Assembly (NCBI GenBank): GCA_963695335.1
Contig: OY968764.1
Span: forward strand, 1,024,001 to 1,088,000
Origin: an uncultured bacterium
GTDB lineage: Bacteria; Babelota; Babeliae; Babelales; Vermiphilaceae
Reading direction: 5' to 3'
DNA length: 64,000 bases
The notes beneath the pieces were generated by a model. It saw only the letters and a list, made by a program, of their open reading frames with translations, had not been told where the DNA came from and searched no databases. The position numbers and the translations under genes are program-made. Shown here piece after piece: positions 1,490 through 9,406 of the stretch (its first letter is position 1; every line of letters starts with the position of its first letter).

Positions 1490-4489
1490 TTATTCCCGTG
1501 CCAATCGCTCTTGCGCATCATTCACGATTTCTTGTTGAAGCTGTTCTTTTATAATCTGTGTTGATGTTTTTGCACCCGCATCTACAAGAATTTTTCGTTG
1601 TTGTTCAAGCGATCCACCCCACCGGTTTTTTCCTGCTCTATCAAAAGCATCTAAAGGAGTTTCTTGTTTACCATTAAGAATGTTAACATCAGCACCATAT
1701 TGTATTAATAATTTAAGTATATTTTCCCTTAAAAAATTGATGCTAAATTCAAAAATTGGATACGTAAGCTTAGAATTATACAGATAAGCAACATTAGGGT
1801 TAGCTCCATGCTTTAATAAAAATTCTACCATTTTGACATTATTCTCACTTAAAGCAAGACCCAATGGGGTTATATCCTCATACCGCAAATATTTAAAAGG
1901 CGTATCTACAGAAACTCCACTCGAGATCAGCAATTCAATAAGTGCTGCATTATTCAAGCGTATTGCGCAATAAAGCGGCGTAGTAGAAGTTGTATCAATT
2001 GGTTTAATGGTAGCATTTCCAGTAATATCAGCCCCATCAGCAATACATTTTTTTGCTATAAAAATAAGATCAATATTTTTGCGAATCTGTTGATAATATT
2101 CTAACAGCTTTCTCTTCGCCTCATGCTCTTGACTATAACGATCCCGTGCGGCTCTTGAGTCAGCAAAATAGCCCGATGGAGCTCTTGGCCAATCTATACG
2201 GGGTGTAGGCTCAGTTAAAATCATATATAAAAGATCAGCAAAAAACTTTTTTTTGTATGAGACATCGGTAATGCACTCATACAATGTTAATACAAAATTA
2301 GTATTGAACAGAGGAATATTTATAGTCATTTTCAATATATCTTGAATAAATTGTTGTTTTAATAGATCATCAGAAAATTGTGTATATAACTCCTTAATAA
2401 AATCAGTTAATTGTTCATACAATTTTATTCTGAAGCTATCATTTCTAAGGTTTCTAAATACAGTTTTTGCCAATACCACATTAATCAATGTTTGTTTTGA
2501 TACATTATCAGGCAACTCTCGATATAAGTCTTTGATAAAATCAACAGTTTTTTCATCAGACAATTCCGTTAATGCTATATCTAAAGCAGTGCTCCAATAA
2601 CGCACCACCAAATTTTTCAATCTTGTATCTGTACGCCATAAACCTAATATTATTCCACCATTTATCATAGCTGTTGCAACCGGGCCACCTTGCCAATTAA
2701 GTGGCATTTGTTGATATAAACTCAATGCATAATCCAATGCTTCTTGATTGATATTGTTCATACTCATAATTTTCTTAATGACATCAAATCTTTGAGAATC
2801 AGTTTCTGTCGGGAATGCATAAAACAACGATATTGACGGTTGATATTGTGGATAAGTAGAAAAGAGCGCAGATAAATTTGGCTGAATTCTAAATAATGCT
2901 TGCGCCTCTGCATTTATTCTATAATTGTGTGCCAATTCTTCAGGTGTAAATAATGACTTTTGTTGAGCCCCTTGCTTATCTCTCTGTGGAACCTCAAGCC
3001 AACCGTGACCAGGATGAAAACAAAAATCTGCCTGTAATCGTTGACCTGTTTTCCTATTATTTATATTCATAGTAATTTTTGAAAAGGAATTATTACCCGT
3101 TACTATTACTATTGGTCCTGTAAATGTTATTGTTCTTCGTTCATCAGAAAGCATTGTGCCTAATTCACCCAGATTGTGGGCCTTAATTCCAAAAAAATGA
3201 TTTGCTAATGTTACAAAATTTTTTACACTCATGGCAGCATTCAATTCATAATCACCTCTGACATACCCTACTCCTTCAACACCTGAAACCAGATTCATAA
3301 AAGCTTGCCCACATTCTCGTGTATTAATTTTACTTGCGCTACTATACGTAGTATAAAATTGTTTAAAATCATTATTCAGCGAAAAATTTGATGGTAAGAA
3401 TGTCAGATCAAATGATTGTGACGATGGATTGTACAACATAATATTAAGCAAATCTTGGAGTGCCGTTTCAACACAATTTGGAGCAGGACTTTTATCTTTA
3501 TATCCATATGATGATTGAATAACTTTAGGAGCATATAATGATGTACTTCTTTTCTCATTCAACATGGCACTGACAACTAACTCAAAGTGTGTTGTTGCAG
3601 CTTTCTGCAACACTTCTTTTCGAGGAGTAACTTCCCATGCATGGCGCACAACATCATAATCTTTTTGCGTATACGTAGCACTTTCGCGAATAATATATTT
3701 CTTAACAAAAGATTTTAACCTATCAAAAAAAGTCGGCTCTGTTTTTTCTAAACCTTTTTTTTGCTCAGTATAATGCTGCACTGCCTGAGCCACTGGCTCA
3801 TGAGTTTCTACAAACACTTGCATGAATTCACTAAGCCCCGCAAGATAATGTATCATATCGTGATCATTATCAGGAATTGCCTTTGCATACAAAAAACCGA
3901 GTAAAATTCTACGACAACTATCTTTATCATTTTTATATTCATTTTCGATAAGCGTTAACAATTTTTCTATTTTTCCTCTTGGAAAAGGCCTTTTTTCATC
4001 CGTAATTCTTCTGTATTCATCAAGCCACTGATTAATGATATAATCACGCACTTTTTGTTCTTGTAATCTACCCGACTCTAAAGCGCCTATCACAAGACCT
4101 ATTATTTCTGGCGACAATGAATATGCAGCTTTTGATTTGCTTGCCGTTGGCCTGAATTGCGGTCCCTGCTTATAAAAAAGTTCTTGTACAAGTTGTGGCC
4201 CAAAAGCCTCTGATTCCGTTTCATATCTTTTTTGAATTGCACCTGTCTCTAATTCTATCGCCCCAATTACCGGAGAAACCTCCTGTGCTTTTGACGTAAG
4301 CCCTTCATATAATCCTTTAATCTTTTCAGGAGCATAAATTGTACGTTTTTGCTGAATCCCAGTTTTCACTGGTGTTGTTGTAGTAGTAAATACCGGTCTC
4401 TTAGAAGTTTGTTTTAATCGCATTCCCTGTAATGATACAGGTATAATAAACAGACTGAAAAGAATCAACAAAACATTAGTTTTCTTCAC
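1490..4489 (-). CDS. Large secreted protein with C-terminal ankyrin repeats (candidate effector)
   Basis: GTG start with AGGGGG SD; signal peptide MKKTNVLLILFSLFIIPVSLQG; ankyrin motifs TPLYCAI..LLISSG, TPLGLAL..FLLKHGANPN, LLIQYGADVN..ETPLD. Confidence 0.85.
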   Translation of the reverse strand: MKKTNVLLILFSLFIIPVSLQGMRLKQTSKRPVFTTTTTPVKTGIQQKRTIYAPEKIKGLYEGLTSKAQEVSPVIGAIELETGAIQKRYETESEAFGPQLVQELFYKQGPQFRPTASKSKAAYSLSPEIIGLVIGALESGRLQEQKVRDYIINQWLDEYRRITDEKRPFPRGKIEKLLTLIENEYKNDKDSCRRILLGFLYAKAIPDNDHDMIHYLAGLSEFMQVFVETHEPVAQAVQHYTEQKKGLEKTEPTFFDRLKSFVKKYIIRESATYTQKDYDVVRHAWEVTPRKEVLQKAATTHFELVVSAMLNEKRSTSLYAPKVIQSSYGYKDKSPAPNCVETALQDLLNIMLYNPSSQSFDLTFLPSNFSLNNDFKQFYTTYSSASKINTRECGQAFMNLVSGVEGVGYVRGDYELNAAMSVKNFVTLANHFFGIKAHNLGELGTMLSDERRTITFTGPIVIVTGNNSFSKITMNINNRKTGQRLQADFCFHPGHGWLEVPQRDKQGAQQKSLFTPEELAHNYRINAEAQALFRIQPNLSALFSTYPQYQPSISLFYAFPTETDSQRFDVIKKIMSMNNINQEALDYALSLYQQMPLNWQGGPVATAMINGGIILGLWRTDTRLKNLVVRYWSTALDIALTELSDEKTVDFIKDLYRELPDNVSKQTLINVVLAKTVFRNLRNDSFRIKLYEQLTDFIKELYTQFSDDLLKQQFIQDILKMTINIPLFNTNFVLTLYECITDVSYKKKFFADLLYMILTEPTPRIDWPRAPSGYFADSRAARDRYSQEHEAKRKLLEYYQQIRKNIDLIFIAKKCIADGADITGNATIKPIDTTSTTPLYCAIRLNNAALIELLISSGVSVDTPFKYLRYEDITPLGLALSENNVKMVEFLLKHGANPNVAYLYNSKLTYPIFEFSINFLRENILKLLIQYGADVNILNGKQETPLDAFDRAGKNRWGGSLEQQRKILVDAGAKTSTQIIKEQLQQEIVNDAQERLARE

Positions 4490-4570
4490 GCCAACCCCCT
4501 ATTTATTTCACAACCAAACGCATCATCATTTTCAATTATAAAATAAACAAGTCGAAAAAAACAACAAAAA
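4490..4570 (-). promoter_or_regulatory. Putative sigma70 promoter/leader, paralogous to 6440-6530
   Basis: Minus strand TTGTTTATTTTATAATTGAAAATGAT with TATAAT -10 and a G-rich SD; similar block upstream of 5656..6438. Confidence 0.5.
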
Positions 4571-4624
4571 AAAGCCCCCCTTTATGCTTTGCACATAAGA
4601 AGGGCCTATGTATGTAACAATAAT

Positions 4625-5659
4625 TTATTCTCTATGGCTCTCATATTCATAAGCATATGAACGGTTCAAATCAACAATCATATCTGCCCGTTTTTTTGCT
4701 TCCATTGGAGTCATCGTCTTTTTTGCTACCAAATTTTTTGTCACATCAGGATGATTCTCTAATAAAAATTTATTACGAGCTATTTTTACTTGAGCATCTG
4801 ATGCACTTTCTGGCAAACCAAGTATTTTTTTTGTTTGAGATCCTTTTATTGAAGATGTAGAAGACGATTGCTGCTGTCCAGACTTTTGATACTGTTGTTG
4901 TTTCCATTGTTGATACTGCTGCTGTCTAGACTGTTGATATTGCTGTTGATACTGTTGTTGCTTCCATTGCTCTTGTTGTTGCTGTTGCTGTTGCTCTTGT
5001 TGATACCACTGTTTTTTTTCCCGATCCTTTTTGAAGCGTTCTATACGTTCGTTAAGAGAAAAAAGAAAAGGATATTCCTGCATTATTGTATTGTAATCTA
5101 TATTTCCACGCATACTATCTATCTTATGAATATAATTAATAAGCGCATCAAGAAATCTACTTCTTTCAGTGTCTTTGTTTTCTTCAAGCCATATAAAACA
5201 TCTATTCAAAAGCGCCATAGCGTATATATAAATATCAGTTTTATATCCTAAAAGGGATTGTAAATTAAAAGATCTCATTTCACTGATCAATTTCTCCAAA
5301 GCTTTATCTTTTTCTTGTTTTTCATAATATTTACTACATATTATTTTTTCCCAGCCATCTAAAAGATTTCTAAAAGGCAAAAGTGTCGAATCTTTTCGAT
5401 TATAATCATAATAAGCTTGAGTAAATGGAATAAGTGCAGTCAAAGATCGCGCACTAGGTGAAACATACTTCCTCCAACTAACATCCCCAGACTTTTCAAA
5501 TGCTACTCTTATTCTCACACCAGTCAGGCTCCGCTGAAATGAGGGCATCGTCCAAGCTCTTTTAGGTACATTTCTGGCTTTAGTCAACATACCATGCAAC
5601 GGAAATAAACTACTCAATACCATCAAAAAAGTTAATAAGCGTCTATTTAAAGTTGTCAT
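4625..5659 (-). CDS. Secreted protein with Gln/Tyr/Trp-rich linker and C-terminal J-domain (HPD)
   Basis: Signal peptide; QQWYQQEQQQ... tract; KKILGLPESASDAQVKIARNKFLLENHPD is a DnaJ J-domain signature. Confidence 0.8.
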   Translation of the reverse strand: MTTLNRRLLTFLMVLSSLFPLHGMLTKARNVPKRAWTMPSFQRSLTGVRIRVAFEKSGDVSWRKYVSPSARSLTALIPFTQAYYDYNRKDSTLLPFRNLLDGWEKIICSKYYEKQEKDKALEKLISEMRSFNLQSLLGYKTDIYIYAMALLNRCFIWLEENKDTERSRFLDALINYIHKIDSMRGNIDYNTIMQEYPFLFSLNERIERFKKDREKKQWYQQEQQQQQQQEQWKQQQYQQQYQQSRQQQYQQWKQQQYQKSGQQQSSSTSSIKGSQTKKILGLPESASDAQVKIARNKFLLENHPDVTKNLVAKKTMTPMEAKKRADMIVDLNRSYAYEYESHRE

Positions 5660-6438
5660 AACTGTCCTCCTCCTCTTTTTTGCACATATTGCTCATATAC
5701 TTTACTAACTTTTTCCACCTCAGATAATTTAGCTTTCAATTTCTGTGTAGATATATTTTTCATTGTTGCGTGAGCAATGAGTTGATTCAAATAATCCTGA
5801 TGGTTTTGCATATACCTTTTATAATGCTCATCCACCACATAAGCAGGCGCATCAACAGGTAAGCTAAAAGCAGTTTGCAAGATTATCGGCAATCCACTCA
5901 CTTGATGACTTGTAACATATTGCTGATGTTCTTTTTTCAACCACGTAATAGTTTTATCAATTACTACGTCTTTACTATCTAAAAAAAAATTATGCATAAA
6001 GTTTTCTTTATCCTCAAGCTCCATTACTTGTAACTCTTCAAAAGGCATTTTCACAAGATGCTGTGTTTCTTGCCTATATTTTTTAATCTCAGAAAACATA
6101 TATATTAATTGATTATATGCTTTAGTAATAACATTTAATAACCCGTTACGATCTGCTAATTTTTCTTTCATCAATTCATAATGATATCTAATATCCAATG
6201 GAGTACTATTATAACCAAGGCCTAATACCTTTAAACATTTTTCAAACAACACTGGCTCAGTAACTATTTTGTACTCAACACCAGTATCCTGGGTCAAATC
6301 TCTTGCTTCATTCTGAATATCAAAAATGAATGATTTGAGAAACGGATATTCTCCCACGAATGGCTCCATAGCATAAACTGTTGCCAAGCTAGCCATTGCA
6401 ACCAAGCTTACTGAGAAAAAAAATCTTAACTTTTTCAT
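5656..6438 (-). CDS. Secreted protein with degenerate J-like domain(s)
   Basis: Signal peptide ...ATVYA-MEP; LKVLGLGYNSTPLDIRYHY resembles J helix I/II without HPD; second segment FSLPVDAPAYVVDEHYKRYMQNHQD; 4-nt overlap with the J gene. Confidence 0.65.
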   Translation of the reverse strand: MKKLRFFFSVSLVAMASLATVYAMEPFVGEYPFLKSFIFDIQNEARDLTQDTGVEYKIVTEPVLFEKCLKVLGLGYNSTPLDIRYHYELMKEKLADRNGLLNVITKAYNQLIYMFSEIKKYRQETQHLVKMPFEELQVMELEDKENFMHNFFLDSKDVVIDKTITWLKKEHQQYVTSHQVSGLPIILQTAFSLPVDAPAYVVDEHYKRYMQNHQDYLNQLIAHATMKNISTQKLKAKLSEVEKVSKVYEQYVQKRGGGQL

Positions 6439-6617: not shown

Positions 6618-6962
6618 ATGCAAAAATTACAACTCAATCGCATAACTTTTTTATTCATATTTTTACTAGCACATCACGCTGCAATACATACTATGCAAAA
6701 TAATAAACGGCAGAACAGAACAAAAAATCTCCCTCAGCCGAAAAAAAACCATACCGGAGGAAAAATTACAAACGAACTCAGAAGTCAAAACCTCACAGAT
6801 CGTTTAATGCATCGTTTTCTTACAGAATTACCAAAAGCACCAATAGACAAGATTAAACCTGCACCAGAGACATCTGCACCTGCATCTGATACAAACGCCC
6901 TATTATATAACTACAATTATCCTATGCATCATGATTTCGATTTAGAATGGATTGAAAAATAA
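6618..6962 (+). CDS. Small secreted hypothetical protein
   Basis: 114 aa, hydrophobic leader then MQNNKRQ; followed by terminator. Confidence 0.65.
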   Translation: MQKLQLNRITFLFIFLLAHHAAIHTMQNNKRQNRTKNLPQPKKNHTGGKITNELRSQNLTDRLMHRFLTELPKAPIDKIKPAPETSAPASDTNALLYNYNYPMHHDFDLEWIEK

Positions 6963-7286: not shown

Positions 7287-8213
7287 TTACACATCTAACA
7301 AATTACTCATCTTACGCTCAGGAGATGCTTCCAGACGCTTCAACCGTTCAATATCACCCAAATATAGTTGCGTTGTTGTTGGTGCAGTATGACGCATTGC
7401 AAGTTGTACTTCATACAACGATGCTCCTGCCTGCATAGAAAGTACACCAAAGGTATGCCGTAAACTATGCGCGGTAATACGCTTACTATCAAGTCCTGCA
7501 GCACGTAACCGACGTTTAATAATTCGAGACAAAGAAAAAATTGTTAATTTTTTTCCATAATTCCGATCACTTAATGAAATAAAAATGGGATCTTTTTCAC
7601 TTCTAATAACACGCGCTTGCAAATAATCATGCAGTGAAACCAATGCCTGAGGCGTTAATAATACAAATTCATCTTTACTTGCACGTCCTTTACCATGAAT
7701 CCACAAAAGCATTTCTCCCCGTTGCTCATACATATCTTCTAATATTGCTGATGCAATCTCTTTAAGCCGCAAACCTGTGCGTACTAAAATATTAATTAAT
7801 GCAAAATCACGTTTGCCTTGCAATGATGAACAATCTATTGAAGCAAATAATTTCTTAAGTGCATCAATCGATAGTGATTCTTTCTGGTGACTTTTTGCAA
7901 ACTTTTTTATTCCTTTAACACCACGAGAAACATTTGGATACAGTTGAGAATCTTCTGTCCACAAAAAAAAGCGCCGTACAACAACTATGTACATCGCTTT
8001 TGTATACGAACTTAACCCTTTTGTATCAAGCCAAAATTTATATGATAAAATTGTTTCCCGTTTTGGTTCTGTTACTTTTTTTTCTGTACACCAACGTACA
8101 AATTGCGTCATTGCATTAAGATATGTAGTACGCGAATTGAGTGAAATATCTTGTGCAGCTATAAAAGGATGAATAAACTCATCCATATTAAATTGATGAT
8201 TTTTAATATCCAT
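7287..8213 (-). CDS. Tyrosine recombinase/integrase (XerC/D-like)
   Basis: Catalytic motifs RTGLR, HGKG, HSLRH, MRH, TQLY; N-terminal core-binding domain (SRTTYL). Confidence 0.9.
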   Translation of the reverse strand: MDIKNHQFNMDEFIHPFIAAQDISLNSRTTYLNAMTQFVRWCTEKKVTEPKRETILSYKFWLDTKGLSSYTKAMYIVVVRRFFLWTEDSQLYPNVSRGVKGIKKFAKSHQKESLSIDALKKLFASIDCSSLQGKRDFALINILVRTGLRLKEIASAILEDMYEQRGEMLLWIHGKGRASKDEFVLLTPQALVSLHDYLQARVIRSEKDPIFISLSDRNYGKKLTIFSLSRIIKRRLRAAGLDSKRITAHSLRHTFGVLSMQAGASLYEVQLAMRHTAPTTTQLYLGDIERLKRLEASPERKMSNLLDV

Positions 8214-8321: not shown

Positions 8322-8726
8322 ATGAAAAAAATAAACTATTTCATCATTTTTTTATGCTCTTTTGTATCACAAACAGTATCTATATATGCTATGGAAAGAC
8401 AGAATTGTAAATCCCCACATCAAATTCTTACAGAAAATCTATTAGACATGCACATCAAACTGCAAATACCTATCTCTCTTATACATCAGTCAACTATAAT
8501 CAGTTACCCATGTTATATATATGGCGAACGTATAGAACCAAACATACAACTCAATCCGCAAAATAGTCTGTATGAATGCCCCTTATGCAATCGCAGTTTT
8601 ACTCAAAAAAAATTAATCTTGCATATAAAAGCTACCAACATCAAACCCCTATACAATGTCCCATTGAATGGATGTGATTATGCAGAGATAGATGATGCAT
8701 ATTTTTTAGAATGGATCAATCAATGA
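8322..8726 (+). CDS. Secreted protein with one degenerate C2H2-like finger
   Basis: Signal ...SIYA-MER; YECPLCNRSFTQKKLILH. Confidence 0.65.
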   Translation: MKKINYFIIFLCSFVSQTVSIYAMERQNCKSPHQILTENLLDMHIKLQIPISLIHQSTIISYPCYIYGERIEPNIQLNPQNSLYECPLCNRSFTQKKLILHIKATNIKPLYNVPLNGCDYAEIDDAYFLEWINQ

Positions 8727-9406
8727 AAAACAATAGATTAATCAGACCATTTTTTTTATTATTACTTTTTGTATCACTCCAGCACAATCGTATAAACACA
8801 ATGCAAATAGATACGATAAATAATGTACAAAAAAAATATATATGTCTTTATTGCCCCAAAGGATTTAATCAAAAAGGTCATGTCCTAGAACATGAACGCA
8901 CACATACTGGTGAAAAGCCATTTCCATGCACAAAATGCCCCAAACGATTTACTCAAAAAAATCAACTCACAAAACACGAACAAATGCATCATGAAATGCC
9001 ATATGCATGCACAAAATGTACGAGACGTTTTGCTCAACAAAACGATCTGATTGAACACGAATCTATACACTTTAAAGAAAAACCATTTAGTTGCACTACT
9101 TGTAAAAAAAGTTTTACGAACAAGAGCAATCTCACAGTGCACGAATGGACACATACTGGCGAAAGATCATTTCCATGTATATGGTGTGACAAAAGTTTTA
9201 CTCAGAAAGGCCATCTCACAAAACATATACAAAAATTACACCCTAACAAAAAACCATACACCTGCATTATATGTCATGAAAGCTTTTCTCTCAAAGCTCT
9301 ACTTACTGCCCACAAAAAAAGCCACGTTAAATCTAACTCTGTATATAAACCAATAGAACTTTTATTTGAAAGCCATGATCATGGATATATGTTACATAAC
9401 AGTTAA
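8723..9406 (+). CDS. Secreted tandem C2H2 zinc-finger protein (6 fingers)
   Basis: Six CxxC-x12-HxxxH units with HTGEKPF/HTGERSF linkers; hydrophobic leader MKNNRLIRPFFLLLLFVSL. Confidence 0.9.
   Translation: MKNNRLIRPFFLLLLFVSLQHNRINTMQIDTINNVQKKYICLYCPKGFNQKGHVLEHERTHTGEKPFPCTKCPKRFTQKNQLTKHEQMHHEMPYACTKCTRRFAQQNDLIEHESIHFKEKPFSCTTCKKSFTNKSNLTVHEWTHTGERSFPCIWCDKSFTQKGHLTKHIQKLHPNKKPYTCIICHESFSLKALLTAHKKSHVKSNSVYKPIELLFESHDHGYMLHNS

Follow-up and report, generated by a model that had tools for sequence, protein, structure and literature searches.

Sec-secreted proteins with mitochondrial presequence-like spacers in a probable Dependentiae bacterium

The locus

The window analysed here is a stretch of 64,000 nucleotides from an uncultured bacterium (assembly GCA_963695335.1, contig OY968764.1, positions 1,024,001 to 1,088,000), in which three genes for secreted proteins follow one another on the minus strand. 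They encode a protease-like ankyrin protein of 999 aa (1490..4489), a J-domain protein of 344 aa (4625..5659) and a protein of 260 aa (5656..6438). The first two are bipartite at the N-terminus, where a Sec signal peptide is followed by a basic segment that begins free of acidic residues and resembles a mitochondrial presequence; this segment, referred to as the spacer, is the subject of the present analysis. The organism very probably belongs to the Dependentiae/Babeliales and lives as an intracellular parasite in protists, as suggested by homologues at 41% and 52% identity that are named Candidatus Babeliales and by the presence in the genome of two secretins and two ATP/ADP translocase matches, both of which are likewise described for TM6 (PMC4776705).

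The 999-aa protein is translated from a GTG start with a GGGGG ribosome-binding site 6 nt upstream (4495..4499, minus strand) and is composed of a signal peptide, spacer, Cys/His protease-like domain, ankyrin repeats and a C-terminal Arg-Glu (RE). The signal peptide (residues 1-22, 4424..4489), predicted by a heuristic together with a weight matrix, is also present in orthologues with ATG starts; the public gene call, P0004, begins at Met23 and misses it. The spacer (residues 23-50, 4340..4423) starts with Met, contains 7 K/R and no D/E, and runs into the motif QKRTIY (4334..4351), whose Arg49 is invariant in 9 close relatives and places a predicted processing site at R-T↓I, in register with the signal peptidase site of short homologues. 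The conserved domain that follows (residues 51 to ~505, 2975..4339) includes the invariant Cys339 (3473-3475) and His495 (3005-3007) and has a weak papain/USP-like fold match, and the ankyrin repeats, with the best-scoring stretch at residues 832-900 (1790..1996), are above Pfam cut-offs.

The 344-aa protein consists of a signal peptide (residues 1-23, 5591..5659), a presequence-like segment (residues 24-72, 5444..5590) ending at an invariant R71-x-L73, a helical domain, a Gln-rich linker, a J domain (residues 274-339, 4643..4840) with its HPD at 4745-4753, and again a C-terminal RE. Both proteins show the features of Sec/signal peptidase I substrates, namely a basic n-region, a hydrophobic h-region and a small residue at -1, which are kept in orthologues as judged with an in-house heuristic. 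The open reading frames and the segments quoted in a preliminary description of this DNA are present, and the 31 residues after cleavage contain 7 K/R and no D/E in either protein; the segments were also described as Ser/Thr-rich, which suits the 999-aa protein (S+T 9) better than the 344-aa protein (S+T only 5). The second mature residue is Arg in the former and Leu in the latter.

Anatomy of the spacer in the protease-like family

A profile search returned 2,149 relatives of the protease-like family, the best 150 of which were examined together with 3 found earlier; of these 153, 11 lacked a usable anchor and were dropped and 16 were reclassified by eye. The family occurs as short forms in which the domain directly follows the signal peptide (59), as forms with a spacer between the two (53) and as forms with a spacer only (26), leaving 4 unclear. 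Spacers are 17-96 aa long with 11% Arg, 1.6% D+E and a median net charge of +6, and they diverge far faster than the domain (9-36% identity vs 35-78%).

With the site register taken from rows firmly anchored by a KGxY motif, Arg occupies position -2 in 29/39 signal-plus-spacer and 16/17 spacer-only forms, together 45/56, against 2/51 short forms, which have A/G/S/T/C at -1 of the same register, that of their signal peptidase site, in 42/51 cases. The Arg content of the spacers would predict 4.3 cases among 50 where 39 are observed. A hydrophobic residue, mostly Ile or Leu, lies two positions after the boundary Arg in 52 of 54 sites. At the other end of the spacer, Met is the first residue after the signal peptide in 35/47 spacer forms and in 2/54 short forms, with a site picker that favoured Met in both classes, and the residue after this Met is Leu in 13 and Phe in 7 of the 35.

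As far as it can be read from sequence, the spacer end, R-x↓hydrophobic, is the pattern of the mitochondrial processing peptidase (MPP). MPP prefers Arg at -2 with an aromatic residue at +1 (PMC9041937), the rule of Arg at -2 is also given in PMC2824752, and yeast presequences have a Leu/Phe-type second residue and the same signature as the spacers (PMC10482271). The presequence features found in the family are an N-terminal position, a net positive charge, richness in Arg and depletion of acids, Arg at -2 with a hydrophobic +1, and an initial Met followed by a large hydrophobic residue.

The J protein, its relatives and the 260-aa neighbour

The 344-aa protein has two homologues, at 45% and 42% identity. 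All three have a mature start of MLT, are acid-free for at least 31 residues (to residue 54 in the 344-aa protein) and open their conserved part with R71-x-L73; one of the homologues carries an insert ending in IRSYS. A relative in genome G006 has a similar leader that ends in MRSYT and lacks the Met. The HPD is invariant in all three proteins, even though the J domain scores below the Pfam DnaJ cut-off (18.7 vs 27.8 bits), a cut-off that is passed with 37.2 bits by a paralogue at genome position 688138. The structure model is of low confidence at residues 18-75 and J-like at its C-terminus, and the top Foldseek rows are J domains at E 0.15, with none at E <=0.001 against the Protein Data Bank (PDB). 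The paralogue and its 8 relatives all have GGQ[KR]RxY after a leader of 60-120 residues that does contain some distal acids. A QKRxY-type motif is found in 10/12 J relatives and the C-terminal RE in 11/12.

The first 45 residues of one of these J proteins (P0167) nearly match those of a protease orthologue (P0006), with a score of 209 for this leader and of 45 for the remainder, which is unrelated. Signal peptide plus spacer therefore behaves as a module that is reused on different payloads.

The 260-aa protein falls outside the presequence class. Its mature start is acidic (ME; 6 D/E in 31 residues), an acidic start being present in 4/5 members of its family, and its C-terminal region is weakly J-like: a profile match to the J region has a probability of 36% and E 4e-4, an Atlas search gave, as a lead only, a DnaJ row at 0.78, and the protein and its homologues (5/5) have no DnaJ Pfam match and no conserved HPD. 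The preliminary description regarded it as one half of a J/J-like pair. As a functional unit this pair is rejected on the acidic N-terminus of the 260-aa protein and on co-occurrence. BLAST between the two proteins gave only E 0.06, and homologues of the 260-aa protein are present in 3/60 relative genomes, 0/3 of which match the 344-aa protein. Its gene is a neighbour of the J gene, and a partnership is not supported.

Signal-less homologues in Coxiellaceae

In a midpoint-rooted tree a clade of 20 spacer-only proteins and 1 unclear protein (support 0.97) is nested within the signal-plus-spacer group. Most of its members carry no taxon and one spacer-only member is annotated as Gammaproteobacteria. 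Two spacer-only members come from contigs labelled uncultured Coxiellaceae, where stop codons in frame directly precede them, and two further homologues among 86 genomes of the Coxiellaceae order are likewise without signal peptide; no in-frame signal peptide was seen upstream at the four spacer-only loci inspected. Three other spacer-only rows, which sit among close relatives, are probably mis-started calls. Both Coxiellaceae genomes have DotB over the cut-off, which is not the case for the present genome (G000), and searches for the mitochondrial carrier and DotA families gave no matches, the controls being equally silent.

One family member may have passed from Dependentiae to Coxiellaceae. 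A spacer that serves as an N-terminal address read by the host would be expected to remain, at residue 1, when the Sec signal is lost.

Genome-wide background

In the 1.37 Mb genome 1,298 genes were called, and signal peptides were predicted with the heuristic caller and weight matrix. The combination of at least 7 K/R and no D/E over 31 residues is found in 5/196 secreted proteins with a Met mature start, including both window proteins, in 0/261 other secreted proteins and in 18/21,486 internal windows (0.08%). Met follows the best signal peptidase site in 160/402 high-scoring secreted proteins, most commonly as Met-Glu, a count to be read with the training of the matrix on ME starts in mind, and position 2 is D or E in 130 of the 196 Met-type proteins; these frequent Met-Glu starts are possibly a mimicry of eukaryotic N-termini. 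The position of the first acid among the 196 tails off and then rises a second time, and this second rise corresponds to class A, defined as secreted proteins with a Met mature start and no acid in at least the first 17 residues (n=23).

Two features that lie outside this definition are enriched in class A. Leu stands at position 2 in 8/23 against 2/43 (p 0.002), and the C-terminal RE, located at 1493-1498 and 4628-4633 in the window genes, is found in 7/23 against 8/1,275 other genes, with varied codons. The motif Q[KQ]R-x(1,2)-[YF] occurs in 6/23 against 0/130 and 2/261, a comparison that is post hoc as the motif was noticed first. No Pfam family is above cut-off for 20/24 class A payloads queried. 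By these sequence features about 20 genes of the genome are predicted to fit the rule of signal plus spacer.

The payloads of class A include an enoyl-CoA hydratase and an M48-like peptidase, described here together with several other secreted proteins of this and related genomes. The enoyl-CoA hydratase (L006/L073, G000:C1:521479-522132; L074), about equally similar to EchA8 and to mitochondrial enzymes, has a signal peptide and a basic leader; the copy in this genome is interrupted close to its end by an in-frame stop, and the G033 orthologue is intact. M48-like HExxH secreted peptidases (L002:3080-4195, L083-L088), reminiscent of Oma1, are basic at the start and carry a weak hydrophobic stretch. 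A second split family (L008, L076-L081) comprises 3 close orthologues with a Met-Leu basic spacer and 3 distant ones with the domain at the signal site. Two large class-A-type paralogues of 962 and 768 aa (L003, L016) have in common a C-terminal domain without Pfam match, and their QKRxY motif lies 75-110 residues into the mature chain. L092 (G000:C1:143500-145059) is a secreted AAA ATPase, presumably resembling ATAD3, with an acidic mature start.

The payload domain

The Cys of the domain is present in 137/138 classified rows and the His in 112/138, the remainder being mostly gaps. The structure model of the 999-aa domain is fair (pLDDT 76); Foldseek found no match at E <=0.001 in the PDB, and there is no Pfam match for the domain. 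A wide fold search returned many USP/PLpro-type proteases at Z 4.3-5.6 over model residues 268-460, the region of the Cys and His, which is suggestive only, and the best match (Z 5.6, rmsd 4.8, 147 aligned) has a Z within the range of common arrangements. The family resembles the USP/PLpro-type papain-like proteases in its conserved Cys and His and differs in a fold score no higher than that of common arrangements. An Atlas search gave, as a lead only, C58 on 20% of members (0.76). The domain is probably a papain-like cysteine protease.

Neighbouring genes

A tyrosine recombinase gene lies upstream (7287-8213, minus strand), and another genome, G010 (L060), keeps the order of recombinase, J-like gene and protease-ankyrin gene with an ATPase gene replacing the J gene. 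A Met-initiated secreted protein of 114 aa (6618-6962, plus strand) has a very basic, acid-free start without the extra class features, which could be a nuclear signal. Two signal-peptide proteins on the plus strand (8322-8726 and 8711-9406) contain eukaryote-like C2H2 zinc fingers, about six in the second, and are candidate nuclear effectors. A tRNA-synthetase-like gene immediately preceding the window (G000:C1:1018196-1021005) is split into several gene calls, possibly because of errors in the assembly.

A putative bipartite address and its alternatives

It is quite likely that the N-termini of both proteins combine a Sec signal with a mitochondrial presequence, and that the host imports the two proteins and cleaves them by MPP. 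The preliminary description had proposed that Sec export unmasks a presequence, and this proposal is now strongly supported at the sequence level by the comparative anatomy of the family, by the signal-less homologues in Coxiellaceae genomes with DotB and by module shuffling. In such a scheme Sec would export the 999-aa and 344-aa proteins from the bacterial cytoplasm, and signal peptidase would expose a new Met N-terminus in imitation of a mitochondrial precursor of eukaryotes. The proteins would then reach the host cytosol, possibly via a secretin system or in outer-membrane vesicles. There the spacer would be read by the host TOM/TIM23 machinery, and MPP would remove it at R-x↓hydrophobic, freeing a domain that begins where the unextended homologues begin. 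The payloads placed inside the mitochondrion would be a probable cysteine protease with ankyrins and a J co-chaperone with mitochondrial Hsp70 as a possible target. Chromulinavorax destructans replicates in the cytoplasm wrapped by the host mitochondrion, and vesicles have been reported (PMC6561590); the mitochondrial link that the preliminary description drew from Chromulinavorax serves the present genome by analogy only.

Several observations weigh against mitochondrial import. The two window segments are no more amphipathic than their own shuffles (p 0.45, 0.64), and family-wide the amphipathy of the first 18 aa is only modest (mean z 0.45, p 0.006). Signal-plus-spacer forms show no enrichment of the Tom20 motif (15/47 vs 18.6), the spacers are rich in Lys, Thr, Gln and Pro and poorer in Leu than typical presequences, and position +1 is usually Ile/Leu, not aromatic. 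The boundary is dibasic in 34/54 sites, as for a convertase site. The counts are not independent, since the presence or absence of the spacer needs 5 tree changes (44 with shuffled labels), a small number that speaks for long-held selection and not for many origins. Within class A the enrichment of an R-3 motif is marginal (4/23 vs 1.2, p 0.03 uncorrected) and also seen in one control group, and some members are without any extra feature. An underpowered out-of-sample test, in which QKR-x-[YF]-[ST] was searched as a DNA pattern in 25 genomes and 30/360 matches were inspected, yielded among the 29 loci outside this genome 5 in frame with long ORFs and 0 in a spacer. The best fold matches of the protease-like domain are deubiquitinase-like, and the mitochondrial matrix is not a ubiquitin compartment. 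The scheme would also require a precursor to get across the outer membrane while still fit for import, and Deeg et al. describe C. destructans as the only isolate with a mitochondrial association (PMC6561590). Confidence is not set higher because of the weak amphipathy, the frequent dibasic sites and this outer-membrane step.

The dibasic sites (24/37 and 10/17) could instead mark the spacer as a propeptide whose removal at KR, by a host convertase of the Kex2/furin type or a protease of the bacterium, activates the payload; this would suit a main payload that is probably a protease. However, 20/54 boundary sites are monobasic, 59 homologues do without a spacer, the spacer is also attached to J proteins, an enoyl-CoA hydratase and an ankyrin-like family, and the signal-less Coxiellaceae forms, which are not expected in a secretory lumen, retain it; such processing is therefore judged unlikely. 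Less probable again is that the spacer and its R-x-L/I form a further motif for export or host entry, recognised at the bacterial envelope or the vacuole and not at mitochondria. The PEXEL and RxLR motifs have a layout of signal peptide, spacer of 20-50 residues and R-x-[IL] that the family shares, and the unexplained C-terminal RE suggests a separate handling of class A, but position 5 is seldom acidic (D in 6/54, E or Q in none), acids are avoided along the whole spacer and not in the motif alone, and the spacer persists in another phylum where the signal peptide has been lost.

The segment might also be a label for another or a second compartment, through plastid transit, dual targeting or binding to the mitochondrial surface without import. 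Plastid transit peptides are likewise Ser/Thr-rich and acid-free, a make-up that the spacers fit; the amphipathy is weak, and Las5315 offers a precedent for a signal peptide followed by a plastid address. Against this, a high Arg content, Leu or Phe as second residue and the fixed Arg at -2 fit mitochondria, and the hosts described in the papers covered are heterotrophic protists (PMC6561590), so that a different destination is rated lower still. The lowest probability of all is assigned to basic disordered linkers or nucleic-acid- or membrane-binding tails with no address role: the low model confidence, the acid-free Pro/Gln/Thr tails of other secreted proteins and those of the 23 class A members that lack every extra feature would agree with it, yet it leaves the fixed Arg at the signal peptidase register, the Met/Leu start and the common end motif unexplained.

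On the preferred reading of the spacer as a presequence, a wider picture can be drawn tentatively, with somewhat less than even confidence. In Dependentiae signal peptidase would write eukaryote-style N-termini on much of the secretome, where ME/MD starts would denote cytosolic effectors. ML/MF starts, combined with a presequence cassette open to shuffling and a C-terminal RE tag, would single out a mitochondrial part of the secretome; its roughly 20 proteins, among them the protease, J co-chaperones, enoyl-CoA hydratase and M48 peptidase, would take the organelle over from inside. One member would have been passed to Dot/Icm bacteria, its signal peptide dropped and its address kept.

Comparison with known systems

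The analysis bears on how Dependentiae, a phylum with almost no functional annotation, remodel host mitochondria. The sequence rule provides about 20 candidate mitochondrial effectors here with exact predicted cut sites, which can be checked in yeast without culturing the bacterium, and indicates candidates in uncultured Coxiellaceae. If the reading is true, effectors addressed to the matrix can be delivered by nothing more than the Sec pathway, presequences can arise in bacteria as modules for repeated use, and the bacterium could place enzymes inside host mitochondria. On the practical side, public gene callers can miss a signal peptide by starting at an internal Met.

Within Dependentiae the secretome of C. 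destructans offers the closest setting, with the same inferred order, signal peptides on 44% of proteins, ankyrin proteins and mitochondrial remodelling; the phrase "mitochondrial target" does not occur in the main text of that report (PMC6561590). No account of presequences in Dependentiae or of this protease family was found in the texts covered (PMC6561590, PMC4776705, PMC12172432, PMC13462478 and bioRxiv 10.64898/2026.03.27.714854), supplements and subscription literature being outside this scope.

The adjacent J and weakly J-like window proteins are reminiscent of Pam18 and Pam16, which are a J and J-like pair. They differ from it in that the 260-aa protein lacks a presequence and that the relatives which have it show no match to the J protein.

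Bacterial effectors addressed to mitochondria or other organelles are already known from Ats-1 and Las5315, and a class of presequences hidden behind Sec signals would, on the present evidence, be new. Eukaryotic matrix presequences resemble the spacers in being Arg-rich, acid-poor and variable in length, with Leu/Phe at position 2 and Arg at -2 (PMC10482271; PMC9041937), whereas the spacers are bacterially encoded, contain more Lys, Thr, Gln and Pro, are weakly amphipathic and have mostly Ile/Leu at +1. Anaplasma Ats-1 is a bacterial effector that is imported into the matrix by a cleavable N-terminal presequence with a proposed cut of the R-2 type (PMC2824752). Unlike the proteins described here, in which the presequence would lie behind a Sec signal and start with a newly exposed Met, Ats-1 is a type IV substrate with its presequence at residue 1, a layout resembled by the signal-less Coxiellaceae forms. 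In Liberibacter Las5315, too, a predicted organelle-targeting peptide lies behind a Sec signal, and it is active only once that signal has been removed (PMC4933711). It is, however, a single chloroplast-directed protein for which that report shows no processing site, whereas the present case would be a gene class in which an MPP-type site is conserved and modules are shuffled.

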